A stretch of DNA of 64,000 nucleotides from positions 4,256,001-4,320,000 of the forward strand of contig OY970067.1 of NCBI GenBank assembly GCA_963705305.1. The letters run 5' to 3'. The notes beneath the pieces are model-generated. The model searched no databases and had not been told where the DNA came from. It worked only from the letters and a program-made list of their open reading frames with translations. The translations under genes and the position numbers were made by a program. This stretch comes from an uncultured Methylomirabilota bacterium. Lineage in GTDB: Bacteria > Methylomirabilota > Methylomirabilia > Methylomirabilales > 2-02-FULL-66-22. This document shows positions 44,426-64,000 of this stretch, piece after piece; the first letter of the stretch is position 1; the number at the start of each line of letters is the position of its first letter.

Positions 44426-44429
44426 TCCA

Positions 44430-46475: not shown

Positions 46476-46545
46476 TTGCTTTTCCCTAAGTCGCCTTCCA
46501 TCCCCACCGTCACTCGCCGTCTTCCCCTCAGGCACAAATCTGACA

Positions 46546-46700: not shown

Positions 46701-46705
46701 CCTCG

Positions 46706-48452: not shown

Positions 48453-48708
48453 CAACTCTCCCTCCCTGGCTTTTCAACATGGGATATGCTCATCTCTACT
48501 GTAGAGTAGCATTTTGCTACCTCAATGTCAAAATGTCCTTTCTCCCGTCTCGTTGCCTCCGTCCTGTTCCTACCGACACACAAACTTGAGGCGGCCTAAT
48601 CTGGTTGGCCGCGATCGCGCTCTCGCCCAGTCCTACCAGCTTGATGTTCGGAAGCTTGGCGTCGATGGAAGGCGACTATGCCGAGGGGGGTCAGGGGAAG
48701 TTCGATGG

Positions 48709-48993
48709 TCAGTTGTCGCTCAGGATCTCTCTGATCCGCTCCGCAATGTCTCGCTGGACCCATCGCAGGACGGAATCAATTCCTGGCGTCGCATAGCGGT
48801 GGGCTTTCTCGTCCTCGAAGCCGATGTGCTGTTGCACGGCCTCGAGGAAAAAATAGTACCCCGCCAGGCTCTCGTCCCAAATCCCAGCCTTTCGATCGCG
48901 GTCCAGCTCCCGCCGCGCTGCCGATAGGCCATAGTAGATCGCCATCCATTTCTCGCGATCCAGCCGTATCGGTTTGTTGGCCTCGGTTGCCAT
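48709..48993 (-). CDS. Hypothetical protein (94 aa), transposon cargo
   Basis: GAGG RBS before ATG 48993; protein-like composition. Confidence 0.55.
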   Translation of the reverse strand: MATEANKPIRLDREKWMAIYYGLSAARRELDRDRKAGIWDESLAGYYFFLEAVQQHIGFEDEKAHRYATPGIDSVLRWVQRDIAERIREILSDN

Positions 48994-49437
48994 TATTTTC
49001 CTCGTGCAGATTCCACAGCGAGTGCGCTTTCCTTCGCCCACAGCCTGCGTGGGAGCTTACCGGTCGCTCAGCTCCTTCCCATGTATGCAGCCCAACATGA
49101 CCTTGCCTACACACGGGTCGAGCTGCGGGCACATTGTCTCAAATCCTAAGCAGCGTACAGGAACATATTTCTGCTGAGCAGTGAATCCCCTCCCGGCGGG
49201 AGGTCGCCAGGCGGTCACTTGAGAGTCTCCACTTGAGTTGGCAAGTGTGGCATAGGGCCGGCGTGCCAAATCCCTCCCACTGGAGGTTCACCGCTCTGGA
49301 GCCCAAGCCCAAAGCGCTCGGAGCGTACCGGCCGATACGCTCGCAGGTTCATCTGCATACATAGAATGCCAGCCCACTGCAATCTGGCAACGAAACCCGA
49401 GCCTCTCTTGATGCCGTTTCGCAGTGAGCAATGACAT

Positions 49438-49980
49438 TCATTTCCTCTTTCGCGGCGTTGGTACTTTCAGCTGCTGCTTGGTGGTCTGTCTAGACACGTC
49501 CACGTCGATCAAAAGTAGGCCGCCACCTCTGAGCAATTGCTCAACTGTGGCCAAGGCGTTTTCGGCCGTTGCTAGGATGGCCCGAGCGATGACCCGCTGA
49601 TCGGGGGTTACCTCCTCCTCGAACGTTCGGGCTATACCCACCACCATCCGTACCGAACCAATGATGGCTGCAGCCGCCTCTGGCGTAATCATCACGTCCT
49701 CGTGCGCACGCGACTCCCGGTACCTGCGGAGGAGGGTCGCGACAGGCTCAGCATCGTCCACGTTGTCTGGGGTAGCCCGGGGATCGAGTGCGAGTAGGTA
49801 GGCTACTGGTACCTTTAGAATCTCGGCGATTTGCCGGAGATTTACTTCATCCGGCACGTTCTTTCCGGTTATCCACGTAGACACCGCATTCTTCTTCAGG
49901 CCAAGTTTTGCTGCGAGTTGGGTCTGATTCAACCTTCGTGCATCCAGCGCCCGTAGGAGTCGCTTGCCCAAGAGGTTCAT
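49438..49980 (-). CDS. XRE-family HTH regulator divergent from tnsAB
   Basis: LNQTQLAAKLGLKKNAVSTWITGKNVP...IAEILKVPVAYLL. Confidence 0.88.
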   Translation of the reverse strand: MNLLGKRLLRALDARRLNQTQLAAKLGLKKNAVSTWITGKNVPDEVNLRQIAEILKVPVAYLLALDPRATPDNVDDAEPVATLLRRYRESRAHEDVMITPEAAAAIIGSVRMVVGIARTFEEEVTPDQRVIARAILATAENALATVEQLLRGGGLLLIDVDVSRQTTKQQLKVPTPRKRK

Positions 49981-50009
49981 GCGTGAGCCCTCGCCTACAA
50001 AAGTTTTGC

Positions 50010-50038
50010 TTGACACGCGTAGTATCGCGCAGTATCGT
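50010..50038 (+). promoter_or_regulatory. Candidate sigma70 promoter towards tnsAB
   Basis: TTGACA-17 nt-TATCGT; AGTATCG direct repeat at 10-nt spacing within it. Confidence 0.6.
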
Positions 50039-50415
50039 TTCGTAACAATTCCAGGCTGCACGACCCGTTACCAACAAATTACCACAACGCAATCTTCCTG
50101 GTCAAGTTGAGATCTCTGATGACTGAAGTCGTGAGGAATAAGGCAGATGGGCCTGGGTCGAGCTGCCAGCACAGCACCGGCCAGACTGACTGTGCCAAGG
50201 CCGCCACCCCAAACGAGGGGCCAGCGTCATGCAGATCAGGGAGCCTGGCTCATGCGCGAGCGGAGTCTGATGGAGGAGCAGGTTGTGAATCGGTCCGGGC
50301 GCATACCACCCTATCGAACGAGCAAGGGAGAGACGACTGCAGACGGGGCGTGTAGGAGACCAGCACTTATCCTGGCAGCGATGCGAGAAATCTCCTTTAA
50401 GGGGAGGGCAACACC

Positions 50416-53133
50416 ATGATGACCGACGAAGAATTTGCGGAGTGGTGCCGCAAGTGCAATGTCTCGGAAGAGGCTCAGAAGATGGTGGTGGAGATTCGGA
50501 ACTCTCCGCCATCCCGACGCGTGGGCGGGGGACCAGGAGGTGTCTCTGGCCGCTTCCCCTCCCGCAAAACGCGCACGGTTCTCCAGTTTTCGAGCCATCG
50601 GGTGGTATTGCCCTTCCTGCAGCAGATGGACCTCGACCCGAAGGTCAAAGAGATATGGGATCAGCCGCCACCCATCCCCCTCGAGTACCAGAAGGCGAAC
50701 GGGCGATGGGTGAGCATCCGACAGACCGCAGACTTCTTCGTGCTCTACGAAGATCGGGCCGGGTGGGTAGAGATCCGAACAGAAGAAGAGCTCGTCAGGC
50801 TGAGTCAGGTCGCGCCCAATCGGTACCGGCGCGACGAAGACATGGGCTGGAATACGCACGATGACGGGTGCTGGTGCTGCCCGCCGGCTGAGGCCTACAC
50901 CGCGCAGTATGGCCTCGTCTACTACGTCTGGTCCGCCGACGAAATCAACTGGAATTACCAGCGCAACATCCATTACCTGGACGAGTACATCGACGCCCCC
51001 GCTCCCCCCGCCGCTGTCCAAGACCACCTGTGCAAGCTCGTCGCGGACGAACCGGGGATCACCCTGGAGGCGCTTGCGGCGAAAGCGGCGCCAGAGGCCA
51101 GCCGGGACGCGATCTACTGGATGATCACCCACGGTGCCCTCTGGGTGGATCTCTGCGCTCGTCCCATTAAAGACGACGACTTGGTTCAGGTCTTTGTGGG
51201 CCAGGACACGACCGGCGCCCAGGGGCTTGCAGTGGAGCCCGCTCGGCCCGGCCGGCCGTGCGTGGTCGACTTCACCGCGGGGAGCTCATTCTGGTGGGAC
51301 GGGCGCTGCTGGACCGTCGCCATGGTTGGGGACTCGCAGTTGATGCTCCAAGGCGATGACGAGAAGCCCCTCTTCTTGCCGCTCGCCACGCTCGAAGTCC
51401 TCGTGAAAGAGGGAAAGATCACCGGCACCACCCAGACCTCTCCGAACTCGGCCATCGAGCGCCTCTTGGTCCGGGCGAGCGACGCAGACAAGGAGATCGC
51501 CAAGCGCCGCCAGCAGTTCGTGCTCCCGCATCTCGCTGACGAGTGGGTGCCCGAGGAGGAAATGCCCGGGCGGACGCTGCGCCGCTGGGTGCGCAAGTAC
51601 CTGCGCGCAAAAGAGAAGTATGGGTGGGGATTTCTCGGGCTCCTGCCGCGGATCGCCTGGCGCGGAAACCGGGAACCGCGATTTGATGATGGCATGCTGG
51701 AACTCGTCAAGGTCATCATCGATGAGGAGTACCTCAAGCCCACGCAGAAGAACAAATTCGCCGCCTGGTCATACTTGGTGCGGGCCTGCGACGGGCTGAA
51801 CGCCCATCGCAGTACCGGCGAAAAAGAGCTCAAGCCCCCCTCTTTCGCCTCGTTCTCCCTGATGCTGGACCGGATCTCGTTGCATGAGCGCGTGCGCCAA
51901 CGTCGGGGACGGAAGGCCGCCTATCCCTACGAGCCATTTTACTGGTACCTGAGTATGACCACCCCGGTTCACGGCGACCGGCCCTGGGAGATCGCCCACA
52001 TTGACCATACCCCGTTCCCCGTCGAACTGCGGTGCTCGAAGACCCACGAAAACTTGGGCTGCGCCTGGTTCACCCTCATGGTGGATGCCTTCACCCGGAG
52101 GGTCCTGGCCGTGTACCTCACGTACGACCCGCCCTCCTACCGGTCGGTCATGATGGTCCTCAGGGATTGTGTCCGACGCTGGCGGCGGCTCCCGCGGACG
52201 ATCGTGGTCGATGGCGGGGCGGAGTTCCACAGCACCTACTGCGAGACGCTCCTGGCCTTCTATGAGGTCATCCAGAAGACACGGCCGGCTGGGAAGCCGA
52301 GATTCGGGTCGGTGGTGGAGCGCCTGTTCGGCACGACGATGACCGAGTTCGCCTACCTCCTGACCGGCAATACCCAGATGGGCGACGGCAATCTCCGGCA
52401 GATCACCCCCTCGGTCGACCCCAAACGGCTTGCGGTGTGGACCCTCGGCGACTTGTACGAGCACCTCTGCCATTACCTCTTTGAGACGTATGACACCAGC
52501 ACGCATCGGACCCTGGGTCAGAGCCCACGCGGGGCCTATGAGGCGGGGATGGCGCAGGCCGGAGCCCGCTCCCACCGGCTGATCCCCTACGACCGGGAGT
52601 TCCTGATCAACACGCTCCCGACAACGCCGAAAGGCACCGCCACGGTTCAGCCCGACGGTAGCATTAAGATCAACAATCTCCATTACTCCCAGCAGGCTCT
52701 GCGCGACGCCCGGGTCGTGAAGCGACCCGTGCCGGTGAAGTATGACCCGTTCGACGCCGGGCATGCCTTCGCGTTCGTGCGTGGCGAGTGGGTTGAGTGT
52801 TTTGCCCGCAACTATGCCGAATTCCAAGGCCGCACCGAAAAGGAATTGATGCTTTACTCGAGCGAGGTCAAGAAGCGGCTCCAGTTCTCCTCCGACGACC
52901 AACTCGAGGAGGCCCGGGAGCGGGCAGAGACGCAGGGGCGGGTCAAGGACAAGGAGGAGGCATTGGCCCAGCGGTGGCGGGACCTAGAGACCTCCCAACT
53001 CCACGACGGCCTCACGCTCCCCGCAACGCGTGCCCAGGAGACGCCCGCCGAGTTGCCTGAAGCCCACCCCCTCCCCTCACCCGAACCGCCGGCCGAGACG
53101 TCCGAAGAGCCCGAATACTACGGAGAACTCTAA
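50416..53133 (+). CDS. TnsA-TnsB fusion transposase
   Basis: N-terminal TnsA-like (SGRFPSRK, DQPP, TADF); C-terminal DDE (AHIDHT, IVVDGGAEF, RFGSVVERLFGT) and Mu-transposase-like tail (VKYDPFDAG). Confidence 0.92.
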   Translation: MMTDEEFAEWCRKCNVSEEAQKMVVEIRNSPPSRRVGGGPGGVSGRFPSRKTRTVLQFSSHRVVLPFLQQMDLDPKVKEIWDQPPPIPLEYQKANGRWVSIRQTADFFVLYEDRAGWVEIRTEEELVRLSQVAPNRYRRDEDMGWNTHDDGCWCCPPAEAYTAQYGLVYYVWSADEINWNYQRNIHYLDEYIDAPAPPAAVQDHLCKLVADEPGITLEALAAKAAPEASRDAIYWMITHGALWVDLCARPIKDDDLVQVFVGQDTTGAQGLAVEPARPGRPCVVDFTAGSSFWWDGRCWTVAMVGDSQLMLQGDDEKPLFLPLATLEVLVKEGKITGTTQTSPNSAIERLLVRASDADKEIAKRRQQFVLPHLADEWVPEEEMPGRTLRRWVRKYLRAKEKYGWGFLGLLPRIAWRGNREPRFDDGMLELVKVIIDEEYLKPTQKNKFAAWSYLVRACDGLNAHRSTGEKELKPPSFASFSLMLDRISLHERVRQRRGRKAAYPYEPFYWYLSMTTPVHGDRPWEIAHIDHTPFPVELRCSKTHENLGCAWFTLMVDAFTRRVLAVYLTYDPPSYRSVMMVLRDCVRRWRRLPRTIVVDGGAEFHSTYCETLLAFYEVIQKTRPAGKPRFGSVVERLFGTTMTEFAYLLTGNTQMGDGNLRQITPSVDPKRLAVWTLGDLYEHLCHYLFETYDTSTHRTLGQSPRGAYEAGMAQAGARSHRLIPYDREFLINTLPTTPKGTATVQPDGSIKINNLHYSQQALRDARVVKRPVPVKYDPFDAGHAFAFVRGEWVECFARNYAEFQGRTEKELMLYSSEVKKRLQFSSDDQLEEARERAETQGRVKDKEEALAQRWRDLETSQLHDGLTLPATRAQETPAELPEAHPLPSPEPPAETSEEPEYYGEL

Positions 53134-54317
53134 TGCCATCTACCTTGCCACGCTTCCCTCCCCCTCTTCTCCAGGCGCCAAGCGCCGAGCGGATTGCGTA
53201 CCTTGTAGGGTATACGATGGCACATCCGTTGCTCAAGACGGTTCTCAAGCGACTCTCGAGCGAAATCGCCGACTCCTTTCGGAACTCCCTGATCTTCGTT
53301 CCCGGCCTCACGGGGGTGGGAAAGACGACGGTCCGCAGGCTGATCGAGGAAACTCTCACACAGGAGTTAGAAGAGGATCTCAAGACTGACCGGGAGCGAA
53401 TCCCTGTCGTCAGCGTCGAAGTCGTGGCGCCAGAATACGGCAAGCTCAATTGGACCAACCACTACTTTAAGCCGACCCTCCGGGTGATTCAGGATGTGCT
53501 GATCGGTCGCAAGCGCCGCCTGGGTCCGTCCCCCAATCCCGAAGCGGCCCCATATGACTTGCTCGGCCCACGGGCGACAGGTGCCGTCTATTATGAGGCG
53601 GTTGTCGAAGGGCTGACCCACCGGCGTCCCAGGGTTGTCCTCATCGACGAAGCGCAGCATTTTCTTCGGGTCGGCCCCGGACGCAACGCGTTGGACTACG
53701 TCGATGTGATCAAGAGCATCGCCAATCGCACGCAGACCGTTCACATCCTGTTCGGGACGTTCGAGCTCCTGGGCCTTCTTGATTTAAGCGGACAGCTCAG
53801 CCGCCGGAGCATCATCGTGCCTTTTCCGCGTTATCACTGTGACACGCCCGAAGAGCAGAAGATGTTCCGCCACGTCCTTCGAACGTTTGCACTCCAGTTG
53901 CCGCTCGAAGAGCCGCCCGATCTCGCCGGAGACTGGCAATTCCTGTATGAATGCACCCTGGGCAGCTTGGGTCTCCTGAAGCAATTGCTGGTCAAAGCAA
54001 TCGCCTCGGCCTACCGGGAGAATCGCCTGGTCCTCACGCGGGCCGACTTGGAAAAGGGGGCCCTCCTCCCCGCACAACGAAACCGGATCCTCCTGGAGGC
54101 TGCTATCGGGGAGAAGCGATTGGCAGGAGGAGGAGATCTTCTGCCAGAAGAGTGCGCGATCCTGGGCCTGGTTCCCCGGGTTCCCCCTCCTCGCCCGCCA
54201 GCGCCTAAGACTCCGACACAGGACCGGAAGCTCCACCCCGGTCGACGCAAGCCAAAACGGGACCCAACGGGAGGTTCCGGCAATGGGTCTAGCAATGGGT
54301 CCGGATCACCCAGTTGA
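53133..54317 (+). CDS. tnsC: TnsC/TniB AAA+ ATPase
   Basis: Walker A GLTGVGKTT, Walker B LIDEAQH, KSIAN, QLSRRS; TAATG coupling to tnsAB. Confidence 0.92.
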   Translation: MPSTLPRFPPPLLQAPSAERIAYLVGYTMAHPLLKTVLKRLSSEIADSFRNSLIFVPGLTGVGKTTVRRLIEETLTQELEEDLKTDRERIPVVSVEVVAPEYGKLNWTNHYFKPTLRVIQDVLIGRKRRLGPSPNPEAAPYDLLGPRATGAVYYEAVVEGLTHRRPRVVLIDEAQHFLRVGPGRNALDYVDVIKSIANRTQTVHILFGTFELLGLLDLSGQLSRRSIIVPFPRYHCDTPEEQKMFRHVLRTFALQLPLEEPPDLAGDWQFLYECTLGSLGLLKQLLVKAIASAYRENRLVLTRADLEKGALLPAQRNRILLEAAIGEKRLAGGGDLLPEECAILGLVPRVPPPRPPAPKTPTQDRKLHPGRRKPKRDPTGGSGNGSSNGSGSPS

Positions 54318-54536
54318 CACGTGGTCTGATCGTGTGGCTGGGTCGTCAGGATGCGGCGTCTATCCCGTGGCAGCGCGCGGCGAGGCAAGGCAGCAATGTC
54401 GCGCGAGCGGGATCTCGATACCTGAGCTCCCCGCAAGGGTGGGACGACTGACAGGCATAACCATCACGGATGTTTCAGCTGGGACCCGGAGGAGACCGTC
54501 CGGTGCATGAGGCGATGGGACAAGGGGGGATCGAGG

Positions 54537-56396
54537 ATGCCGAATCTCTTTGATTCGTGGGACCTGACGCCCACGCCCTTTCCGCCACGGAGTCGCCTGT
54601 ATTCGTTAGGGCCAATGGGTGTGGGGACTCCCATGGTTGAGAGCTTGACCGGTTACCTGATGCGCTTGGCCATGGCGCATTCTGTTGGGGTTGGGGACCT
54701 GCTGCGTGCAGAAGTGCAAGATTGGATGTCTCCAGGGAAGCCTATTGTGCCTACGGCCATATGGAACGGAGTCAACGGGGTGGTTCGCACAACCCGGGAT
54801 CTAGTGCAGACCCTTGAACGTTTGACGCACCGGACGGATCTGGTTTACCTCACATTGCTGCCCCTTGAGTCACTCCTCCCGACTACCCGACTTATACGGA
54901 AGAAGCGGGCGTGGTGCCCGTACTGTTATGAGGAGATGGCCGCCGCCAGCGCGATTGTATATGAGCCACTCCTATGGTGCCTGCAAGCGGTCGAGGTGTG
55001 CCATCGGCATAAGGTCTGGCTGTACACGACGTGCCCCCATTGTTCCCAAATGCTCCCACCGTTGGCGGCGATGGTGAAACCAGGCCATTGTTCGCGATGC
55101 GAGGCGTGGCTTGGGACACACACGTCCCCCCTCGAGGACCCGAGCCACCGGAGAGCCACGGTCGATCAGTGTTGGATGGCAGAGGCTGCAGGAGAGCTGG
55201 TGGCATGTTGCCCTCGGATTGATCCTGCCGTACTGAAAGCCAACCTCCGGACCGCCTTATCAGCGCGTGTGGACAAGCTGGCCGGCGGCAACCGGAATGT
55301 GCTCGCGCAGGCGTTTCAGGGCTCTCGAGTATCCTTCCATGGGTGGGTTGCCGGCACGCAGATGCCTCAGCTCGGCACCCTGCTCCGTCTATTGCGTTAC
55401 CTAGGATTGCCGGTACGTTGTCTGCTCGATCCGCAGCAATTCGTGGGTGAAGCGGGGAATAGGGGCGAGCAAGCGCTTCTGACCCATCGCGCAGTGGTTC
55501 CGCATCGGAGCCCCTCCCAGATCCGCGCTGTCCTGAAGGCTGTGCAGGGGGAGCATCCTGCTCCAAGCCTTTCAGAGGTGGCACAACGTCTCGAATACAC
55601 TTCACCGAGGCGCCTCCGTGCGGTCGATCGTGCAGGTTGTCAGAAGGTCGATGAGAGGCATCGTAACGGATCCAGCGCGGCCCGAGGTAATGATCTACGC
55701 CCCCCATCTGAGATCCAGCAGGCGCTTGAGGATTCTCTGGCGTGCCCGCAGCCAATATCGGTCAACCGAATGGCCTACCTGTTTGGATACTCGAATCCCG
55801 CCTCACTCCATTGTCGGTTTCCGGAGCTGTGCCAGGCGATTGTGGTGAAGCTCGCCACATGGAAGGAAGAAAGACGCAGGGCGATCAGGCGGAGGCTGAA
55901 GGCGGCGGCCAGGGAGAAGCCGCCGCCCACTTTGGAAACGCTCACGAAGGAGTTTGGCCTCCACTCACAAAAGCCGCTCCGAAGGCTCGAGCCGGCGTTA
56001 TGTGACCAAATCATCGCACAGCGCAGGGCGTGGATCAAACGGAAGCGAGCAGAGCTTGCACGACGATTGAAGGCGGTTCTGCGAGAGGAGCCGCCTCCTT
56101 CTGCGACGGCGGTCCGGCAACGCCTCGGCATTTCGCCACGAGCAGTCTGGTACCGCGAAACCTTCAAAGCCATCGCACGGAGATACGCGATCCACAGGAG
56201 GCAACTTAAACAGGCGCGAATGAACACATCTCGCAACGAAATGCGCGAGATCGTGAACCGACTGCACCGCCAAGGTGTCTACCCGTCAAGAGGTCGGGTG
56301 ATGAAGTTGCTGAGCCCACGATGTGTCAAAAGCAAGGCATGGATTCAGAATGCAATCAGGCAGGCTCGGAAGGACATAGAGAGGCGCCAGAAATGA
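54537..56396 (+). CDS. tniQ: TniQ/TnsD-like target selector 1 (619 aa)
   Basis: VESLTGYLMRLAMAH, AWCPYC, EPLLW, CHRH, CPHC, GHCSRC; four repeated C-terminal HTH-like modules. Confidence 0.9.
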   Translation: MPNLFDSWDLTPTPFPPRSRLYSLGPMGVGTPMVESLTGYLMRLAMAHSVGVGDLLRAEVQDWMSPGKPIVPTAIWNGVNGVVRTTRDLVQTLERLTHRTDLVYLTLLPLESLLPTTRLIRKKRAWCPYCYEEMAAASAIVYEPLLWCLQAVEVCHRHKVWLYTTCPHCSQMLPPLAAMVKPGHCSRCEAWLGTHTSPLEDPSHRRATVDQCWMAEAAGELVACCPRIDPAVLKANLRTALSARVDKLAGGNRNVLAQAFQGSRVSFHGWVAGTQMPQLGTLLRLLRYLGLPVRCLLDPQQFVGEAGNRGEQALLTHRAVVPHRSPSQIRAVLKAVQGEHPAPSLSEVAQRLEYTSPRRLRAVDRAGCQKVDERHRNGSSAARGNDLRPPSEIQQALEDSLACPQPISVNRMAYLFGYSNPASLHCRFPELCQAIVVKLATWKEERRRAIRRRLKAAAREKPPPTLETLTKEFGLHSQKPLRRLEPALCDQIIAQRRAWIKRKRAELARRLKAVLREEPPPSATAVRQRLGISPRAVWYRETFKAIARRYAIHRRQLKQARMNTSRNEMREIVNRLHRQGVYPSRGRVMKLLSPRCVKSKAWIQNAIRQARKDIERRQK

Positions 56397-56621
56397 AAGC
56401 CCTCGGAGAGGGGCGGCTCGAAGATCTCTTCATGGATGGGGTTGAGGTGCGGGGCGATGGCGGGCACGAGATTGCGCCAGCTCGTTTTCATTTGCCGGAC
56501 GCTGACTGTCTGGCCATCAGCTCGTATGGCAATCGACGGGAAACGGCAGTCGGTCCGTCCGGCAGGCACATGGACATTGTCTGTCGTGGCCGGGATGCAA
56601 TCAGGCAGGGAGGAGTGGAGG

Positions 56622-58482
56622 ATGCCGAATCTCTTTGATTCGTGGGACCTGACACCCACGCCTCTTCCGCCGCGGAGCCGCCTGTATTCGTTGACGCCAA
56701 TGGGCGTGGGGACTCCCATGGTTGAAAGCTTGACCGGTTACCTGATGCGCTTGGCCATGGCGCATTCTGTTGCGGTGGGCGACCTGCTCCGGACAGAAGT
56801 CAGAGGCTGGGGGTCAGCGAAGCGGCCTACGGGGATACGGAACGCTGTTAACGGGGTGGCTCGCCAAACCCGTAACCTGGTAGACACTGTTCAACACTTG
56901 ACATTCCGGACGGACGTAGCCTGCCTCTCCTTGTTACCCTTTGCGTCATTCCTCCCGAGTACGCGGCTTGTTCGGGGGAGCCGGGCTTGGTGCGGACATT
57001 GTTATGAGGCAATGGTCGCAGACTGCGGCGTCGTCTATGAGCCCCTGCTCTGGTGCCTGCAGGCGGTCGAGGTGTGCGCCCGGCACAAGGTCTGGCTCCG
57101 CACGATCTGTCCAAAGTGCGCTCGGGCGCTCCCGCCATTGGCGACGACTTCAAGCCCTGGCCATTGTTCGCGGTGTGGGGTTTGGCTTGGGGCAACCGCG
57201 TCTTCGCAGGTCGACCCAGGACAACGGGAGCCCACGGCCGATCTGTGTTGGACGGCAGAAGCCGCGGGGGAGTTGCTGGCATGGGGTCCTCGAGTTGACC
57301 CGGCCGGGCTGAGAGCCAATCTTCGAACGGTCCTGTCATCGTGCGTGGAAGAGTTGGCCGGCGGCAACCGTTTCGCGCTCAGTCGGGTACTCCAGTTTCC
57401 CCAGACAACCTTCCATAGTTGGGTTGCTGGCAGACAAATGCCTCAGCTTGGCAGTCTCCTGACGCTATTGCGCCAACTCGACCTGCCGGTCCGCTGCCTG
57501 GTAATGCCCCAGACGTTCCGTGGGTTGCGGGAAGATTCAGTGTGAGCGAGCCTTGGCGAGCGAATTCGGAGTACATGCGTATCGGAGCCAAAGTCAACTC
57601 CGCGATGCGATGCAACCCTTTTTGCTAAAGAATCCAGCTCCAAGCCTTATGGAAGTCGCCCGGGATCTTGGTTACACCTCGCCGGACCGCCTCTATGAGG
57701 CTGATCGTGCGACTTGCGAAAAGATCGTCGCGAGGCGTCGGGAGGAATTTCGCGCTGCACGAGTCTATAGACTGTGTTCCTCGGCCGAGATCCAGCGGGC
57801 GCTCGAGGATTCTCTGGCGGAGGCCCGGCCGATACCGATCAGTCAGGTCGCACGCCTCCTTGGGTATTCATATTGTACCCCGCTCATCAGTCGGTTTCCG
57901 GAACTATGTCGAGCTATTGTGGCGAAGATTGCGGCGTGGAAAAAAGAATTATGCAGGGCGATCCGGAGGAGACTGAAGGCTGCCGCGAGAGAGAAGCCGC
58001 CGCCGCCCCTGAGGGCTCTTGCAAGGGAGTTTGAGCTGCCGACCGCTGATTTGCTCCGGGACCTCGAGCCGGAGCTGTGTCGCCAAATCGTTGCGCGGCG
58101 TTTTGCATGCATAAAGGAAGAGCGGGGAGTGCTTGCTTGCCAATTGGAGAAGGTTCTACTGGAGGATCCGCCTCCTTCCGCGAGCGCGATCCACAAACGG
58201 TTCGGCATTACGCGGTCAGTTGCCATGAAGTGGTATCACAAGACTTTTAGGGCAATTGCGCGCAGACACGCACTTTACAGGAGGCAAGTCAAACAAATGT
58301 GGTTAAACGCGTGCCGGAACGAAATCCGGGAAATCGTGAACCGACTGCACGGTGATGGCGTCTACCCGTCCGATGGACAGGTGCTGAAGTTGCTGAGCCC
58401 ACGGTTTACTAGAACAGACCGAGTGTGGGTCAATAATGAAATCAGCGAAGCTCGGAAGGGCATAGGGCGGCCGCATAAATGA
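56622..58482 (+). pseudogene. tniQ: TniQ/TnsD-like target selector 2, +1 frameshift at 57518-57519
   Basis: Collinear paralog of selector 1; TTC C GTG GGT versus TTC GTG GGT in copy 1; both halves otherwise open, so possibly an assembly error. Confidence 0.85.
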
Positions 58483-59101
58483 GCAGTCTCGAAGTAGGGC
58501 TGATGTAGGATCTCTCAGCGGATGGCGAAAGTCACGAGCTCGCCCCAGTTCGTCTTCAGCTCGCGAACGCCGAGGGTCTGGGCTCCACCCCAATTGGCAA
58601 CGACGAGAAACCGCAGTCCTGCCCCGTCCCCGAGGCAGGACGTCATGACCTGTGGCCGAAATGGGGCGGTGCTAGCTCGCACGGAGGGACTGCCTCAGCA
58701 GAGTAACTAGGCCTCCGAGTAAGCAAGTTGTCTGGGCCGGTGCAATCGGGCCGTGCGGAAATGCGTCAGGGTTGGTCCACTTTCCTCTTTGTGGTCTCCA
58801 CAGATGCCGGGGGATCATCGAAATGTCGCCGAGTCAAGGGCTCGGTCTGTAAATTGGATGAGTTCATCCTTCGCACAGTAGCGGAAAGCCTCCCCGCCGA
58901 CTTATTCTGCAGGCCGTCTTGGTGGATCCTATACGCGGGTAGGTTACCACAACCAAGAATCCTGTCGCCGCTGGATGGCTATGACATCTTGGAACCTGCG
59001 GAAACGTACGAGATCCAAGTGGCACCGGACCGATCCCGATATTCCAGGTTGGTTGGATTGGCCATTTGGCCACTTTATGCCAGAAGTCGCAGTCGCACAC
59101 A

Positions 59102-59174
59102 CCGCCTGTCTGGACCGCTCATCTGGAAGGGCCCACGCCAATGCGACTGAACAGTCCAGCACGCATTCGCTCAT
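59102..59174 (-). pseudogene. vapC: VapC/PIN toxin, 5' part
   Basis: MSECVLDCSVALAWALPDERSRQA; ATGA overlap with the antitoxin stop; joins in frame to DRLLART at 47054. Confidence 0.88.
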
Positions 59175-59425
59175 CGGCGTCGGCCCTGCGCGATTAGCTC
59201 TCGGACATTCACCTTTCCGGGGATCCGTTGTCGAATCTCCCGGAAAGCCTGCAGAGCCTCCCTGGGCGTGAGGCATCGCTCTCCCGCCCCGACGGGTGTC
59301 AAGCGGGCCACGGCCTTGCCTCGACGCTTTATCACAAAGGTGGCTCCTTGCTCGGTCGCGCGCAGCAGCTCCGACAGGCGCGTTTTCGCCTCGAAGGCGC
59401 CGACAGTGATCGTCTTACCCCTCAT
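59171..59425 (-). CDS. Phd/YefM-family antitoxin
   Basis: TVGAFEAKTRLSELL...FVIKRRGKAVARLTP...LIAQGRR. Confidence 0.9.
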   Translation of the reverse strand: MRGKTITVGAFEAKTRLSELLRATEQGATFVIKRRGKAVARLTPVGAGERCLTPREALQAFREIRQRIPGKVNVRELIAQGRRR

Positions 59426-59451
59426 CGGTCTCCTCCACTGGCAGTTGACTG

Positions 59452-59485
59452 AAACTAGTTTAACAAACCGGTCTGTTCTCGTCAA
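59452..59485 (-). promoter_or_regulatory. phd-vapC promoter with palindromic operators
   Basis: TTGACG-17 nt-TAAACT; dyads AAACTAGTTT and ACCGGT. Confidence 0.65.
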
Positions 59486-59489
59486 CGGC

Positions 59490-59605
59490 CCGATTCCAGT
59501 ATGCAGCAGACAGGGGTTAAAAGTCAGTGGTCGGTGGTCGGCGGTCACGTGAGATATGAGTTCTTCAATTTCGAACTTCGAATTTCGCGTTTCGAATTTC
59601 CCGTT
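59490..59605. repeat. Mosaic repeat block
   Basis: attccagtatgcagcag, gtcagtggtcggtggtcggcggtc, aatttcgaacttcgaatttcgcgtttcgaatttc. Confidence 0.75.
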
Positions 59606-59667
59606 TGCCTCTTTCCTCCTGGTCATGATAACTTTCCGACGTTAGACGATCCAATCCGCGACCGGCC

Positions 59668-60159
59668 ATGATCGACCTCTATACTGAATTCAAGACGGCA
59701 CTGCAGGCCCTCGAAGCGGCTGAGGTTCCCTACGCCGTGTGCGGTGGCCTTGCCTTGATGGTGTACCAGCTACCCAGGGCAACCGTTGACATCGATCTGG
59801 TCCTACCGGCCGACGCGACTGATGCTTGCGCTGCGGTGCTGGTGCCGCTCGGCTATCGGCCCCATCCTCGGCGGATGCGCTTCGCATCCAGCGGCGTCCA
59901 GATCCTTCGGTTCTACAAAGTGGAACCGGGGGGGCCGGACGCGCTGACCCTGGACTGCCTCTTGACCACTCACCCGACGATCCTCGAGACGTGGCGCAGC
60001 CGCGTTCGCGTTCCCTTCGAGGACCGGACGATCTGGGTCGTCTCTCTCGAAGGGCTGATCGCATTGAAGCAGCTGAGGGGATCGCCCCTGGACTTGCTCG
60101 ACATCCAGGCCCTGCGAGAGTCCGGCCCGAGAACACACCCGGGAGAAGACGATGCCTGA
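59668..60159 (+). CDS. Nucleotidyltransferase-fold protein
   Basis: YAVCGGLA...PRATVDIDLV; VVSLEGLIALK...DLLDIQAL. Confidence 0.8.
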   Translation: MIDLYTEFKTALQALEAAEVPYAVCGGLALMVYQLPRATVDIDLVLPADATDACAAVLVPLGYRPHPRRMRFASSGVQILRFYKVEPGGPDALTLDCLLTTHPTILETWRSRVRVPFEDRTIWVVSLEGLIALKQLRGSPLDLLDIQALRESGPRTHPGEDDA

Positions 60160-60487
60160 GGCGGATCAGCGACTGCGCCAAGTCGCCCAGCTACGAAGAA
60201 TCTGGCGGGCCCTTCGGGATGCGCAGGAACGACGAGAGGACGAGGAGATTGCGCGCCCCTACTACGAGAAGTTGCCGGGACCCTCTGATGTCCGGGAACC
60301 GCACCCCGCCTATAGCCGCCGTACGATTCGCGCCTTGGTCCGTCGCTGGTGGTGCGCCGGCGACTATGCAGCCATCATCCAACTCGGCCAGGGCCTCGAC
60401 CCCGTCCTCCTGGACGAAGAGCCGCTGGTCCGGGTATATCTCGACGAAGCAACGGCGGCTCTTTCCCTCGACCATCTCCATCCTTAG
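60152..60487 (+). CDS. Hypothetical protein coupled to the nucleotidyltransferase
   Basis: 8-nt overlap with the upstream gene; 111 aa helical. Confidence 0.55.
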   Translation: MPEADQRLRQVAQLRRIWRALRDAQERREDEEIARPYYEKLPGPSDVREPHPAYSRRTIRALVRRWWCAGDYAAIIQLGQGLDPVLLDEEPLVRVYLDEATAALSLDHLHP

Positions 60488-60533
60488 TGCTTAGCGGCCT
60501 AAATTCCACGACGTATCCATTGACCGCTTAACC

Positions 60534-60778
60534 TCCCGGTCCCCTGGGCCGACCCGAGACGCCGCGCCACACCCATCCTCCGGATGGGTACCCGGCGAGC
60601 CGGTCCGGCGGGCACCCGTTGCGCTCTCCCCATGCAACGGGTCGGGCCACCGTTCTGTGGTGGCCGACCCCGGGTACCCGGCCGGGTAGGCTGGGTGCAG
60701 GGCGAGCCGGCATCGGGTACCCGCCCGCAGGGTGGGTGCAGGCGCCAAGCGTCCGAGGGGCGGCCCGGGGGACCGGGA
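60534..60778 (+). repeat. GC-rich palindromic element with three GGGTACCC hairpin modules
   Basis: Closing stem TCCCGGTCCCCTGGGCCG / CGGCCCGGGGGACCGGGA followed by acccgag as in 34515 and 45625. Confidence 0.6.
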
Positions 60779-60884
60779 TACGTCGCCGCAATTACGGCCA
60801 GGAGTACTTAGGTCCTCTGCCGGAAAAACTAAACGGCACGTCGATCCCTCGGCCCGGCGCCGTTGTGCGGCGAACGACCTCAAT

Positions 60885-61272
60885 CTCTCACGCCGAAATC
60901 GCCGTCGGATGAAACAGTGAACCGGGCTATCGGTGTCCGTTCTCTCTCCGGGACTCCGTTTCCCCGATACTCCGTTTCTCCGTCTCTCCGTTTCTCCGTC
61001 TCTCCGGTTCGCCCCCTCACCCTCTCTCCTTGTCGCCCGCTCTCCCCTTCGCCCCTTCGTTCCGCCCTGCGCCCTTTGGGTGCTTTGCGTGAGGCGCCTG
61101 TTCTTGCCTTCTCGTACGCTCGTACGGTCTTGCACTTTCGCCTCAGCACCCCTGCACTCGAGCGCAGCGGTGCTCCCCCTCCCTCCGGGGTGGAGCCCCT
61201 ACGGGGTGGAACCCGGGCCGTAGGCTTGACTCCTGCCCCCTTGCCCTCTGCCCTATGCGCCATGCTCTTTGC
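60885..61272. repeat. Mosaic repeat block
   Basis: ctccgttt/ctccgtct octamers, cgcccc(t) octamers, ctttgcgtgag, palindromic unit 61177-61225, ctatgcgccatgctctttgc. Confidence 0.8.
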
Positions 61273-61273
61273 G

Positions 61274-62083
61274 CTACTCGAGTACCTTCTTCTTCCTTTC
61301 GTTCTGCACGCATTCGAGCTGCGAGACTTGGCTATACCCGTTGAACTTCAGCGAGGCCCGCACCCGCCGCAGCAACTCCGCCCGATCCACGCTCCCCTTC
61401 GCGTCCCGCAGGTGTTTGCAGAAGTAGTACGAGAAAGCCCCGTTGAAGCTGCGGTTGATGTACGCGTCCGCTGACGTTCGGTTGTCCCGGCAGCCGGCAA
61501 ACAGCACGTGATTCATCGGGTTGGTGCCTCGAAGCAGCTTCGTCACCTCCATGTCATCATCCGCCCGGCACGCAATGTCCACAGGCGGTGGGAGAAACCG
61601 GGGCTTGAACGAGAGCTCCTGCGGAAGCCCGGCGATGACCGTCAGCTCACGCGTGCCCGTCCCCGAATGGCAGGCGTCCAGCAAGATCTCCAGGTTCACC
61701 CCCTTGGGCAGCGACCCGAAGGCCTGGCGCAGCTCGTCATCCACGATGTAGGTCCCGTATCAGTCCATGTCGTGCGGGCACAGGATCTCGTCCATCTTGT
61801 CCTTCGGCTCGTCCCCGTCCTGGTCCACGATCTGCGAGCCATGGCCCGAGAAATGGAACAAGAGCCTGTCCCCTGCCTTGGCCTTGGCCGTCAGCCAGCC
61901 GATCTTGGCCATGATGTTCTTCTTGGTGGCCCGGCCGTCCGTGAGAACCTGGATTTCCGTGGCGATGAAGCCGAAGTACTTGAGCAAAATGTCCCGCACG
62001 TTCGTCACATCGTTGACGCACCCGTTGAGATCCGCCCCCTCCATCTTGTACTTGTTCACCCCGACCAGCACCGCCTTGTTCAT
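61274..62083 (-). pseudogene. Caspase-family (peptidase C14) protein with in-frame TGA at 61760-61762
   Basis: KAVLVGVNKY, LNGCVNDV, FHFSGHGSQ, then HDMD*YGTYIVDDEL, LLDACHSGT, GAFSYY in the same frame. Confidence 0.88.
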
Positions 62084-62094
62084 TCCCTCCTCCT

Positions 62095-62350
62095 TTCCTT
62101 TGCCCTTGCCCTTTCCTCTTGGCTCCATGCCCTATGGTCTTCGCCTCTGCGCTTTTCCCCGACTCTCCGTCTCCCCGGTTCCCCGTCACTCCGTTTCTCC
62201 GGCTCTCCGATTCGCCCCCTCGCCCCCTCTCCTTGTCTCTCCCTCGCTCGTGCTCCTCCCTCCGCACCGCAGGCTGACCCCTGACCCCTGACCTCTGACT
62301 ACTAATCTTTGCTCCATGCCCTTGGCCCCTTGCCCCATGCCTCTTGCCTC
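62095..62350. repeat. Mosaic repeat block
   Basis: ctccgttt-type octamers, ctgacccctgacccctgacctctgactact, tgccccatgc units. Confidence 0.78.
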
Positions 62351-62651
62351 TTTATCTTTTCTTTACACTATCTGAAATACCACATTCCTCACGCCCCGTC
62401 CAGCCGCACGGGGAGCCGTTCCATTCCGGACCATGTGCACCATCACAGGATGAAATCAGCTCAACTGGGTCCGATGCCAGGACGGGGATAGCTTTGATCA
62501 GGTGAGGGGATAGGGAAGGAAACTAAGAGGGGTGGGTCGATCCGATCTCGGCAGGTGCCCTGACCGCGCATTCGGCGGGATGGCAAGGCGGTATCGGAAT
62601 CAGGAGGGGCCGCGCTTGGCGCTCTGCTCTATGCTCTTCGCCCTGTGCGCC

Positions 62652-62813
62652 TCAACGCGAGCCGATCAGGTCCAGGATCCTGCGGGTCACGGCCTCTTCG
62701 AGCAGCACTTCGTCCGTCAGCAGATCCACGAGGACCGGTACCTGCTCCACAATGGTCACTTTCCCGCGGACGGTGAGGGAGATCGTTCGAACATCGCACC
62801 GCAGCTCGCTCAT
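62652..62813 (-). CDS. Small YgiT/MqsA zinc-finger-like protein lacking the Cys pairs (53 aa; not in the ORF track)
   Basis: AAGGAGG RBS; MSELRCDVRTISLTVRGKVTIVEQVPVLVDLLTDEVLLEEAVTRRILDLIGSR. Confidence 0.5.
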   Translation of the reverse strand: MSELRCDVRTISLTVRGKVTIVEQVPVLVDLLTDEVLLEEAVTRRILDLIGSR

Positions 62814-63003
62814 CTCCGCGGCCTCCTTCCACGAAAATCTGCGCTCCAGCGTTCCGGGTGAAGATCTGGCCGGTAGGTTGTCACCAACTTCACTCGCTCA
62901 CGAACAATCCCGAACGCCATATGCCATGGTCGCCCCCCGTTTCTCGCTTTCGCCGACTCTCCGGCTCTCCGCACCAAAACACGGAACCCAGCGCGCCGGT
63001 CCC

Positions 63004-63252
63004 CTATTCCTGTGTGTAGAATTCTCTTCGAAGATCATCCTGGGGAACGAAACGGCTCGCCTGCCGAATGATCGCCTAGAGGGTGCCCACATCCAATTCT
63101 CTGTGCTGCGGGAGAGTCAATGTCTGCACGCTCCCCGAAGGTGCCACTCGTCTCAGCTTTACGTGACTCCCTCGTTGAGCGTGGACCCGAAAGCCAAACC
63201 GGGCGAGAATGGTGATCACGTCGTCGCCGGACAGCCGTCTAAGCTTGGGCAC
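63004..63252 (-). pseudogene. hicA: HicA toxin with premature TAG at 63076-63078
   Basis: MPKLRRLSGDDVITILARFGF...QRGSHVKL...LPQHRELDVGTL*AIIRQAS. Confidence 0.85.
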
Positions 63253-63475
63253 CGGCCGGCTCCAGCTCCATGGTCACCAAGATCGTGGGGTGCGGGACGA
63301 GGCCGAAGTCAGCGGCGTTTTCCCCTTCGAGGTGGAGGGCGACGGCCTCCTGCAGGTTTGCAAGGGTTTCGTCTACCGTCCTTCCCTGGGTTACGACAGC
63401 CAGCTCCATGCATTCGGCGACATACCAGTCGTCGCCCCGGCGAAGCAAGGCCTTCACGGTGTGCTGCAGCGTCAT
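63239..63475 (-). CDS. hicB: HicB antitoxin (short form)
   Basis: WYVAEC.EL.VVTQGRTVDETLANLQEAVALHLE. Confidence 0.88.
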   Translation of the reverse strand: MTLQHTVKALLRRGDDWYVAECMELAVVTQGRTVDETLANLQEAVALHLEGENAADFGLVPHPTILVTMELEPAGAQA

Positions 63476-63629
63476 AGCTTTCTCCGCTCTCCTCTCAAGT
63501 GCTCTTGCCGTGCCCCCGCTCGCGACCGACCAACGGAACTGTCATCGCTTCTTACGCGTGCCATCGGAGTCTTCAGCATTATAAGCCATCCCGGCCCAGT
63601 CGCAAGGTTCTTCCTCCAGCCGCTCCTCT

Positions 63630-63815
63630 TCCTCAGCACCCCTGCTCCCGAGCGCAGCGGTGCGCCCCCTCCCTCCGGGGTGGAGCCCCTACGGGGTGGA
63701 ACCCGGACCGCAGGCTGACCCCTGACCTCTGACCTCTGACTACTAGTTTTTGCGCCATGCCCCCTGCTCTCTGCCCTCTGCTCTTTGCCCCGTGCCCCGC
63801 GCCCTATGCGCTTCG
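63630..63815. repeat. Mosaic repeat block
   Basis: Near-identical to 61141-61225 (cctcagcacccctgc...ggagcccctacggggtggaacccgg), then ctgacccctgacctctgacctctgactact as at 62274. Confidence 0.82.
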
Positions 63816-63911
63816 CAATCTGGTCAAAAACGTCGAATGTCCCCTAAATTCACAGGTTGGGGACGGTCTTGAAGTCCACCTGGATGGAGCGTGGTCCCAG
63901 CATGGATGCCC

Positions 63912-63959
63912 TTGACCTGTGATAAGAGGGCTGGTACTGTCTTGACCGTCTAGACGGTC
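63912..63959 (+). promoter_or_regulatory. Candidate sigma70 promoter followed by a perfect 16-bp palindrome
   Basis: TTGACC-17 nt-TACTGT; GACCGTCTAGACGGTC at 63944-63959. Confidence 0.6.
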
Positions 63960-64000
63960 TAGGCAGCCTTAGTCGTCTTGGGGGGCGTTCAGATGAAACC

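Follow-up and report, generated by a model that had tools for sequence, protein, structure and literature searches.

Tandem tnsD paralogs, the second split by a frameshift, in a probable Cas-less Tn7-like transposon within vapC

The interval 54537-58482 is probably the target-selector end of a Cas-less Tn7-like transposon with a TnsA-TnsB fusion, inserted in a vapC gene, whose tnsD copy 1 serves as the working selector and whose copy 2 once provided a second specificity. Within the window, that is, the whole 64-kb stretch of DNA analysed, this element spans about 12.0 kb (47055-59091), bounded by end repeats and by the interrupted vapC toxin gene, and its transposition genes follow one another in the order tnsAB fusion, tnsC, tnsD1 and tnsD2, without CRISPR. 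In the mechanism proposed for such an element, the TniQ core of TnsD with its zinc finger would dock on TnsC and the four HTH-like units would lie along and read 40-50 bp of target DNA, as suggested by analogy with other TnsDs and by the homology of the array to the PmcTnsD C-terminal domain. In a next step TnsC would assemble on TnsD and recruit TnsAB, with insertion beside the site as the outcome. Copy 1, being intact, is the presumed working selector. Copy 2 was kept under purifying selection after duplication while many putative recognition-helix residues changed, and it most likely served a second specificity; as assembled, it is cut by a +1 frameshift where the linker joins the core to the array. 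It is plausible that the two paralogs correspond to two different DNA targets.

Gene content, ends and insertion site

The tnsAB gene (50416-53133, + strand) is intact and encodes a fusion transposase of 905 aa with Pfam rve and Mu-transpos_C matches, which aligns over residues 5-862 with the TnsAB of PmcCAST (PDB 9bw1_M, E = 7.2e-224) and is present as one copy per genome in the closed 5.65-Mb genome. It shares one operon, a hallmark of Tn7-like transposons, with the gene for the AAA+ regulator TnsC (53133-54317, + strand; 394 aa; Pfam AAA_22, E = 1.6e-11; TniB, E = 1e-9). TnsD in turn matches PDB 8v32_J with E = 7e-61, and with E = 7e-123 when the family profile is used as the query. The assignment in the initial annotation to TnsAB-fusion Tn7-like elements akin to type I-B2 CASTs is borne out by these matches, and among solved structures the type I-B2 CAST PmcCAST supplies the closest relatives by sequence, namely its TnsAB and TnsD. 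The cargo comprises a zeta-toxin-like P-loop kinase (47437-48264, - strand; Pfam Zeta_toxin, E = 4.6e-11, and AAA_33) and a ParD-like antitoxin (48036-48455, - strand; Pfam ParD_like, E = 3e-12), and an XRE-family HTH regulator (49438-50061, - strand; Pfam HTH_3, E = 7.6e-10), with its likely start at ATG 49980, is divergent from tnsAB.

The claimed lack of CRISPR-Cas was substantiated at several levels. No Cas family was found in 20 ORFs with PADLOC or in 70 window ORFs with Pfam, the ORFs of the element included, no CRISPR or other Rfam match was present in 43000-64000, and neither Cas7 (PF01905) nor Cas1 (PF01867) gave a match anywhere in the closed genome. PmcCAST differs in this respect, having the features by which a CAST is defined, namely Cascade, a CRISPR array and a short Cas-associated TniQ within the element, none of which is found in the element of the window.

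Both ends of the element were located with a weight matrix built from 26 end arms of 13 relatives, across which the end repeats follow the same family consensus as in the window's element. The left-end terminal repeat, TGCGACTTCTGGCATAAAGTGGCCAA (59066-59091, - strand), scores 15.0 against 5.8 for the runner-up and has the orientation expected for a left end. The right-end terminal repeat (47055-47080, + strand), which starts TGCGACTTC and ends GTGGCCAA, lies at the vapC break and is the sole best + strand counterpart of the left arm in the 64-kb window, such that the arms at 47055 and 59091 are mutual best matches there with 18/26 bases in agreement. Three further TnsB-site-like repeats at 47089, 47166 and 47196 (47089-47208, + strand) contain the core GCATAAMGYGGMC, which agrees with the end consensus of the 13 relatives; at 0-1 mismatch this core occurs at four sites of the window, namely these three + strand sites of the right end and a single - strand site of the left end. 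Inverted repeats are hence present, with a single TnsB-like site at the left end and with both termini reading TGC instead of TGT. Because the termini begin with TGC, the ends were found solely with the matrix from the 13 relatives: searches for TGT...ACA termini turned up no convincing candidate, either in the window or in a further 120 kb, the end motif of one relative (locus L006) had no window match at up to 3 mismatches, and scanning with 18-mers taken from upstream of tnsAB returned noise only.

The interrupted gene was recognized by sequence comparison with an uninterrupted operon. A 5' fragment of vapC with 27 codons (59092-59170, - strand) directly follows the phd/yefM antitoxin gene (59171-59626), and the rest of the gene, encoding the PIN toxin (46548-47054, - strand), is found on the other side of the element and is 61% identical to a congener phd-vapC operon (G019:C4, locus L092), which is uninterrupted. 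A 5-bp target-site duplication is absent, with CGATC before the right end and GTCGC after the left end, and the left junction contains about 10-11 extra bases relative to the congener's intact vapC, a comparison which suggests no duplicated bases; a perfect 5-bp duplication is present in 6 of the 13 relatives. The missing duplication, the extra bases at the left junction, the single left TnsB-like site and the TGC termini together suggest that the element is perhaps immobile now. DNA synteny with 20 congeners over 44001-64000 revealed dispersed repeats and phd-vapC only, with no DNA-level empty site beyond that of the congener named above. The correlation of insertion sites with repeat residues envisaged by the initial annotation did not emerge, since the flanks and junction-spanning ORFs of the 13 elements share no sequence or gene, and the six with clean duplications have no obvious target in common and yield no motif for an attachment site next to the right end.

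The tnsD copies and the frameshift in copy 2

The tnsD copies are tandem and collinear on the + strand with a gap of 222 bp. Copy 1 (54537-56396, in an ORF that opens at 54507) is intact, with 619 aa from MPNLF, and comprises the TniQ core, four repeats and a GVYPS module. Copy 2 occupies two frames: the first (56619-57545, 308 aa) encodes the TniQ core and shares 67% identity with copy 1, and the second (57520-58482, 320 aa) encodes four repeats plus the GVYPS module and shares 54% identity with it. The terminal GVYPS module that had been ascribed to both paralogs is indeed found in the copy 1 ORF and in the second frame of copy 2. The TniQ family (Pfam PF06527, gathering cut-off 27) is matched with 59.6 bits by copy 1 and 47.2 bits by the first frame of copy 2, and the PADLOC model TniQ_IB with E = 7.5e-34 and 1.4e-27 for copies 1 and 2, respectively. 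Across 40 sequences, the zinc-finger residues C137, C140, C165, H168, C176, C179 and C195 do not vary, C198 is found in at least 90%, and pairwise alignment with copy 1 reveals that all these Cys/His ligands are retained in copy 2.

Copy 2 is interrupted by a +1 frameshift near 57519-57522, where ACGTTCC stands against CAATTC in copy 1, which separates the halves 56619-57518 and 57520-58482, and the first frame stops at 57545, 6 codons past this point. Of the two collinear paralogs of about 620 aa initially described, two TniQ-family genes with an intact copy 1 are thus confirmed, but the description of two full-length selectors fails for the sequence as assembled, because copy 2 is frameshifted. 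Copy 2 is either a freshly inactivated gene or a case of base-calling error. Programmed frameshifting was rejected, as the sequence around the extra base lacks a slippery run.

Were the frameshift an assembly or base-calling error, both genes would be intact selectors of about 620 aa and would define two protein-guided pathways to two DNA sites. This reading is rather unlikely, even if several observations would fit it: although the paralogs have diverged to dS = 0.88 with dN/dS = 0.31, the 620 codons contain a single lesion, neither frame of copy 2 has a stop codon, a GGAGG-like, ribosome-binding-like site still precedes the separate ATG of copy 2, and the genome is a single closed contig, an assembly type in which single-base indels can survive. 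A tandem second TniQ match was also found in 7 of 80 relative loci, 5 of which encode two full-length TnsDs, intact and without Cas. However, the extra base lies outside any long homopolymer, in the context TTCCG, and the genome's own gene call also treats copy 2 as broken, with a single 277-aa piece (P0122) at the second frame. Contig pieces from three metagenome runs have zero depth over 56622-57805.

The preferred reading, in which copy 2 was a second selector before it was cut, draws on the divergence of the paralogs. They are 61% identical over 615 aligned residues, and the best other protein among 5.8 billion reaches at most 42%; together with the dN/dS of 0.31, this argues for an in-situ duplication retained under selection, and on the sequence evidence the tandem tnsD pair is a lineage-specific duplication. 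As the initial annotation had noted, the N-termini are nearly identical, with 95% protein identity over the first 57 codons from MPNLF; at the DNA level, identity is 93-94% over some 170 nt from the ATG onwards, and the flanking DNA on both sides is much less alike. With dS of 0.30 in these 57 residues against 0.6-1.6 elsewhere, this segment appears homogenised. The residue strings quoted for the positions right after the G(Y/L/I) turn are correct and do differ between the paralogs, but a concentration of differences at these positions is not significant, since the turn and third helix have 17/40 identical positions against 125/215 in the remaining array positions (p = 0.083, Fisher test).

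This lack of a significant focus on recognition positions would also fit copy 2 being a redundant duplicate in the course of loss, which never had a separate specificity, with the element working, now or formerly, with TnsD1 alone. The frameshift itself would agree with such a loss, as would the sufficiency of one TnsD in most relatives, given the 7 loci in 80 with a tandem second TniQ match, and the degraded look of the junctions and left end. Simple redundancy is nevertheless improbable, since a dN/dS of 0.31 without stops, at a dS close to saturation, implies long retention under selection, whereas a copy with no function beyond redundancy should have decayed much earlier.

The break coincides with the linker that joins core and array, modelled with low confidence (pLDDT 66-75 around model residues 311-340), which raises the question of whether the truncated 308-aa core could act by itself, either as an adaptor like TniQ or by competing for TnsC and thereby damping TnsD1-directed transposition, with even the 320-aa array functioning separately as part of a split selector. 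The size of the remaining core is that of CAST-type TniQ proteins (308-316 aa in loci L034 and L061, the former from Myxacorys californica, one of the element's relatives; 329 aa for PmcTniQ, 8fcu_P), and addition of TniQ was reported to lower TnsD-directed homing about tenfold in CyCAST (PMC10293859). A function of this kind is very improbable, given that no ribosome-binding-like sequence precedes the second frame and that the Cas7 and Cas1 searches of the genome reveal no Cas partner. Searching with the 320-aa frame retrieved 9 proteins, the genome's own 277-aa call and 8 on contigs of at most 3.8 kb, which are probably cut genes on account of these short contigs.

The seemingly homogenised N-terminal 57 residues could also mean a shared interface, with the paralogs forming a heteromer that binds a single composite site instead of acting as alternative selectors, which is hardly to be expected. 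The N-terminal region is the most conserved part across the whole family, PmcTnsD is a single chain (J) in 8v32 and 9bw1, and the conservation is explicable without a heteromer because, as reported for AvTnsD, HTH1 and ZnF1 of the N-terminal domain contact TnsC (10.64898/2026.06.02.729338).

The C-terminal repeats

A repeat HMM from the family alignment detects four repeats of about 57 aa in each copy (domain E-values 6e-17 to 1e-10), and profile-profile comparison with hhalign finds the four positions mutually homologous with 97.5-99.3% probability, in keeping with the four repeats per paralog noticed in the initial annotation. Among 120 homologs, 116 contain 1-6 copies (0 in 4, 1 in 37, 2 in 18, 3 in 13, 4 in 45, 5 in 1 and 6 in 2), and the repeat number rises with protein length.

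In the AF2 model of tnsD, which has an overall pLDDT of 85.2 and reaches 89.0 in the array, each unit is predicted as helix, PPPS loop, helix, loop, short helix and long helix (pLDDT about 90), and the GVYPS terminal module as three-helix. The model matches 8v32_J in Foldseek with E = 3.7e-21. Repeat 4 with the tail superposes on residues 345-461 of PmcTnsD 9bw1_J (Z 10.9, rmsd 2.1 A, 113 residues) and on 8v32_J with rmsd 2.2 A over 114 columns. Foldseek with the whole array gave nothing at E <=0.001, the best match being 8v32_J at E = 0.023, and repeats 1-3 drew no significant structural neighbour in a wide search whose rows beyond 9bw1_J cover residues 234-300 only; apart from PmcTnsD, the structural searches returned generic three-helix bundles with Z <=7. 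The idea that the repeats fold as an HTH array is accordingly supported by the confident helical units and by the fit of repeat 4 and tail to PmcTnsD, but repeats 1-3 lack a significant match of their own. Pfam HTH matches to the tnsD copies are all under the cut-offs, and the HTH label is based on these sub-threshold matches, on the PmcTnsD match and on precomputed HTH families in homologs. Past the TniQ core, the proteins have the long HTH-type C-terminal extension characteristic of TnsD, in the form of four units and the three-helix module, and in the main reading every repeat would bind DNA.

A broader idea, which is quite unlikely as a whole, is that the PPPS-x-LG(Y) unit represents a DNA-reading module variable in copy number from 1 to 6, each unit reading a few bp through its post-turn residues, and that specificity evolves by gain, loss and re-coding of units according to a partly decodable code. 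If such a repeat code were true, the young 4 + 4 pair would be a natural swap experiment for decoding and retargeting a Cas-free Tn7-like integrase.

Relation to known systems

PmcCAST TnsABCD, known from the TnsD-TnsC-DNA complex (PDB 8v32) and the TnsABCD-DNA transpososome (9bw1), likewise has a TnsA-TnsB fusion, TnsC and a TnsD core followed by a C-terminal unit and GVYP module. It differs in that PmcTnsD (462 aa) has one repeat unit, by alignment to the family profile, against four in the TnsDs of the window, and in that its reported target is a tRNA gene, whereas the window's element sits in vapC and the 64-kb window contains no tRNA gene; identity is only 28-30%. In a related TnsD, a C-terminal HTH is reported to read the tRNA attachment site and HTH loss to accompany target change (10.1101/2024.10.13.618069). 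The cyanobacterial TnsABCD elements that target tRNA genes or CRISPR arrays (Mob DNA 2025; 10.1101/2024.10.13.618069) similarly combine a TnsAB fusion with gain and loss of the C-terminal HTH upon target change. As described there, they are mostly minimal elements without cargo, with a single TnsD and one or no C-terminal unit, while the element of the window carries two paralogs with four units each, as well as toxin-antitoxin cargo located between right end and tnsAB.

TnsD of Tn7 and of the type I-B1 AvCAST is also reported to consist of a TniQ core followed by HTH domains which read tens of bp beside the insertion point, with extra domains lengthening the footprint, and six HTH domains of AvTnsD read about 50 bp through base contacts tested by mutation (10.64898/2026.06.02.729338). 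These proteins are distant in sequence and gave no match in PDB sequence searches with the window's TnsD; the available text on AvTnsD does not present its HTH domains as repeats of a single unit, whereas the four units of the window are clearly homologous.

Faure et al. 2023 reported 1,048 tandem tniQ/tnsD loci, including two-tnsD loci, arising via in-situ duplication (PMC10293859), and in these dual loci the selectors likewise stand in tandem after tnsC, are mutually closest and have diverged after duplication. The pair of the window has the same tandem arrangement of mutually closest genes, though copy 2 is frameshifted, and the clade may be listed in the supplementary locus tables of that study. 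What sets the pair apart is its uniform 4 + 4 architecture and youth (61% identity) with one copy frameshifted, as the five dual-TnsD relatives have 2 + 4 or 2 + 1 repeats and are 36-47% identical. Tandem pairs of tnsD, the duplication from which they arise and DNA-reading HTH arrays have all been published already. As it stands, the locus is therefore mainly another example of tandem tnsD by in-situ duplication, which has been surveyed at scale. If both selectors work or once worked, the element would be a compact Cas-free relative of I-B2 CASTs with two protein-guided arms on one repeat scaffold, and the pair would be handy for finding the residues that set the specificity of the TnsD HTH unit. 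That the C-terminal units are true sequence repeats present in 1 to 6 copies is a small, useful point for engineers of TnsD-guided insertion. The locus also extends the range of the clade into a phylum where it is rare, homologs having been found in 1 of 250 other genomes of the phylum searched.

The tandem tnsD pair and its frameshifted second copy

The tns operon consists of four genes in a row on the + strand, namely a tnsAB fusion ORF (50416-53133, 905 aa, Pfam rve/Mu-transpos_C), a tnsC-type ORF (53133-54317, 394 aa, AAA_22/TniB), tnsD copy 1 (ORF 54507-56396, 629 aa, TniQ, with the family-conserved start MPNLF at the ATG at 54537) and tnsD copy 2, which begins with the ATG at 56619 and likewise matches TniQ. 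Among solved structures, the 905-aa protein matches over residues 5-862 the TnsA-TnsB fusion of the type I-B2 element PmcCAST (chain 9bw1_M, E = 7.2e-224), entry 9bw1 being the PmcCAST complex according to a passage in 10.64898/2026.05.29.728539. Copy 1 matches PmcTnsD (8v32_J) with E = 7e-61 when used alone and E = 6.9e-123 with a 40-sequence family profile, followed in second rank by the short Cas-associated PmcTniQ (8fcu_P). The 9bw1_M and 8v32_J matches bear out the initial annotation of a TnsAB-fusion Tn7-like element akin to a type I-B2 CAST.

The two tnsD copies share 61% identity over 615 aligned residues (core 67%, C-terminal half 54%). The near-identity of the N-termini had been correctly noticed: identity is 95% over the first 57 codons and, at the DNA level, 93-94% over about 170 nt from the ATG (54537-54707 vs 56619-56789), with a steep drop in similarity on both sides. 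The reading of two full-length selectors of about 620 aa is wrong for the sequence as assembled, since copy 2 is split over two frames, with the core (56619-57518) and the C-terminal half (57520-58482) in different frames and a stop in the first frame at 57545. Aligned to copy 1, copy 2 contains one extra base (ACGTTCC vs CAATTC), and the genome's own gene call holds just a 277-aa piece for its second frame. Contig pieces from three public runs that contain parts of this region had zero depth across 56622-57805.

In a search of 5.8 billion proteins, the highest identity of any other protein to copy 1 was 42%, and hence the copies are each other's closest relatives. Nei-Gojobori estimates for the pair gave dN/dS = 0.31 and dS = 0.88, with dN/dS in all segments at or below 0.51, and no stop codons were found inside either frame of copy 2. 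The pair is a lineage-specific in-situ duplication retained under purifying selection, and the lone frameshift of copy 2 is either recent or an error. As dS is 0.30 over the first 57 codons vs 0.6-1.6 elsewhere in the pair, this low value suggests that gene conversion homogenised the 5' end. In solved relatives, the corresponding stretch is the part near TnsC. Copy 1 has its closest homolog (41% identity) in P0002, a protein of 1,047 aa that combines TnsC (AAA_22/TniB) and TniQ domains in one chain, whether as a TnsC-TnsD fusion or through a merged gene call.

A scan for relatives, with one genome per species, retrieved 79 loci, chiefly from Acidobacteriota, Cyanobacteria and Chloroflexota, which have the gene order tnsAB-tnsC-tnsD in common and mostly carry a single TnsD. 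A tandem second TniQ-like gene is present in seven of them: in L034 and L061 a short TniQ precedes TnsD, while the remaining five loci encode two full-length TnsDs, all intact, with pairs of 536 + 629 aa in L076 and of about 510 + 455 aa in L062, L041, L055 and L059. These five pairs have 2 + 4 or 2 + 1 repeats with a within-pair identity of 36-47%, and no Cas families were found among 47 ORFs of at least 220 aa in their loci. In 12 cyanobacterial loci, a TniQ-like match on the opposite strand lies upstream of tnsAB, and 18 kb of one acidobacterial contig (L082:80-17739) hold three elements of the family (tnsAB-tnsC-tnsD) arranged head to tail.

In the passages available, Faure et al. 2023 (PMC10293859) report a single tniQ/tnsD gene in 2,905 loci and tandem genes in 1,048, tnsD pairs included. 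They also characterise the TnsD C-terminus as composed of several HTH domains, and show that the dual arrangement repeatedly originated through in-situ duplication with subsequent neofunctionalisation. The element fits their description of dual tniQ/tnsD loci as given there, but is set apart by its young pair, the identical 4 + 4 architecture and the broken second copy. The tandem tnsD feature is real and of a known kind; what the initial annotation observed is partly confirmed, and its interpretation is partly supported.

C-terminal repeats, predicted fold and target specificity

The proposal of four C-terminal repeats per paralog holds, with the unit HMM matching four times in copy 1 and four times in copy 2. 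When the 40-sequence family alignment was sliced at the four proposed repeats and the slices compared as profiles, probabilities of 97.5-99.3% and E-values of 7e-12 to 5e-20 were obtained. The repeat is a family trait of variable copy number: among 120 homologs the unit HMM found no repeat in 4, one in 37, two in 18, three in 13, four in 45, five in 1 and six in 2. Longer proteins have more repeats, from one unit at about 450 aa to four at 600-700 aa, and on the family profile PmcTnsD (462 aa) shows one unit only, with matches to both repeat 1 and repeat 4. No mention of these units as variable-number sequence repeats was found in the literature covered, which comprised text searches and passages, and novelty is not claimed.

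AlphaFold2 models based on the family alignment reached mean pLDDT values of 85.2 (copy 1) and 89.0 (array alone). Each predicted unit opens with a helix and the PPPS loop, continues with helices of first 7 and then 6 residues separated by a 6-residue loop (LGYxxx), and closes with a long helix extending into the following unit. Foldseek with the whole-protein model retrieved 8v32_J (E = 3.7e-21) and 8fcu_P. With the array alone, PmcTnsD was the sole standout, aligned over 114 columns with an rmsd of 2.2 A (8v32_J), and with Z 10.9 and an rmsd of 2.1 A for 9bw1_J, where model residues 184-296 superpose on chain residues 345-461. This superposition of a predicted model identifies repeat 4 with the GVYPS module as the homolog of the PmcTnsD C-terminal domain. 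The PmcTnsD structure was reportedly published by Wang et al. in Cell in 2024.

The HTH label is based on this PmcTnsD match, the classic pattern xxLxEVAxxLGYxxxxxL in the repeats, sub-threshold Pfam HTH matches of the tnsD proteins and HTH families precomputed for several copy 1 homologs. The view of the repeats as an HTH array is supported for repeat 4 and the tail, but repeats 1-3 are barely covered by structural matches, since all matches other than PmcTnsD had Z of 7 or less and were confined to the terminal three-helix bundle. In the passages available, the C-terminal unit of McTnsD is an HTH reading part of the tRNA attachment site, consistent with the PmcTnsD cryo-EM, and is lacking in CRISPR-array-targeting relatives (10.1101/2024.10.13.618069), and in AvTnsD about 50 bp of glmS are read by six HTH domains, whose base contacts were probed by mutation (10.64898/2026.06.02.729338).

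The residue strings initially quoted after the G(Y/L/I) turn of each repeat are correct. The proposed focus of paralog differences there is right in direction, with 17/40 residues identical in the turn and third helix vs 125/215 across the other array positions, but falls short of significance (Fisher p = 0.083). Across the family, the turn and third helix likewise vary somewhat more, with a mean major-residue frequency of 0.53 vs 0.60 elsewhere. It appears slightly the better supposition that copy 2 once had a distinct specificity; the hypothesis of two targets is reasonable, and would apply to the sequence as it stands only in the case of an erroneous frameshift.

Element boundaries, cargo and absence of CRISPR-Cas

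The end structure was learned from 13 relatives' loci by a TGT...ACA arm search, which yielded one TGTGACTTAAASCATAAYTTTGCCG-like consensus; L033 and L073, with arms unlike this consensus, were left out. The elements of these relatives measure 4.5-9.2 kb, and 6/13 have perfect 5-bp duplications. When the 26 arms were combined into a weight matrix, it gave a single outstanding match in the window at 59066-59091 (- strand; score 15.0, runner-up 5.8), whose best + strand partner is 47055-47080 (18/26 bases). Three further sites with the GCATAAMGYGGMC core lie next to the latter, and this core occurs with at most one mismatch at four places in the 64 kb.

Codons 1-27 of vapC, a PIN-domain gene, run from 59170 down to 59092, right after a phd/yefM antitoxin gene, the rest of vapC runs from 47054 down to 46548, and the phd/yefM-vapC operon is uninterrupted in the congener G019. 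Because vapC is split across both flanks and the arms lie at these junctions, the element spans 47055-59091, about 12.0 kb, with the end pairing confirmed by the flanks. The interrupted operon (46548-47054 and 59092-59626, - strand) is thus broken at about codon 27 of the toxin gene, and the downstream vapC remnant seems to go out of frame.

Both termini are TGC, the left end has one visible TnsB-type site only, and the junctions lack a 5-bp target duplication, with about 10-11 extra bases at the left junction repeating the terminal hexamer. Between the right end and tnsAB lies cargo (47215-50415) comprising a zeta-toxin/ParD-like pair, a small 110-aa ORF and a divergent XRE regulator, which could regulate the tns operon; this distance is 3,361 bp here vs 243-1,203 bp in the 13 relatives. 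Its cargo position, its termini, the one left-end site and the missing duplication with extra bases make the element unusual.

The initial annotation of an element free of CRISPR-Cas is upheld, as Cas families are absent among the element ORFs and the window's larger ORFs. An Rfam search of 43000-64000 gave zero matches, no tRNA genes were found in the window, and neither Cas7/DevR (PF01905) nor Cas1 (PF01867) was found in the whole genome, with control genomes positive in both searches.

Genome surroundings

The element is present as a single copy in the closed 5.65-Mb genome, which has only one tnsAB of its family, and homologs were found in 1/250 other genomes of the phylum. Outside the window, the family end matrix gives a score of 24 to three identical 26-mers of the TGTCATCGG...GCCGT type (G000:C1:354915, 962604 and 2106874 of the source genome), which may mark the termini of Tn7-like elements that are non-autonomous or unrelated.

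Tandem units of 8 nt (CTCCGTTT/CTCCGTCT-like) form intergenic arrays, and TTCGAAA-like units of 7 nt are present in inverted copies 15 kb apart (45095-45232, 60924-61077 and 62119-62272; also 44303-44342 and 59567-59606); neither coincides with the transposon ends. Dispersed repeats of about 250-330 nt (60483-60811 and 45594-45849), with many genomic copies and present in most congeners too (70-97% identity), look like MITEs. The segment 62659-64000 is repeated with 100% identity about 13.5 kb past the window end (G000:C1:4333480-4334821). Set among housekeeping genes are an IS encoding a DDE_Tnp_1_4 transposase and an ORF containing an IS200-like Y1 transposase domain (31142-32593 and 17551-18723), and a caspase-domain fragment is located at 61274-61744.
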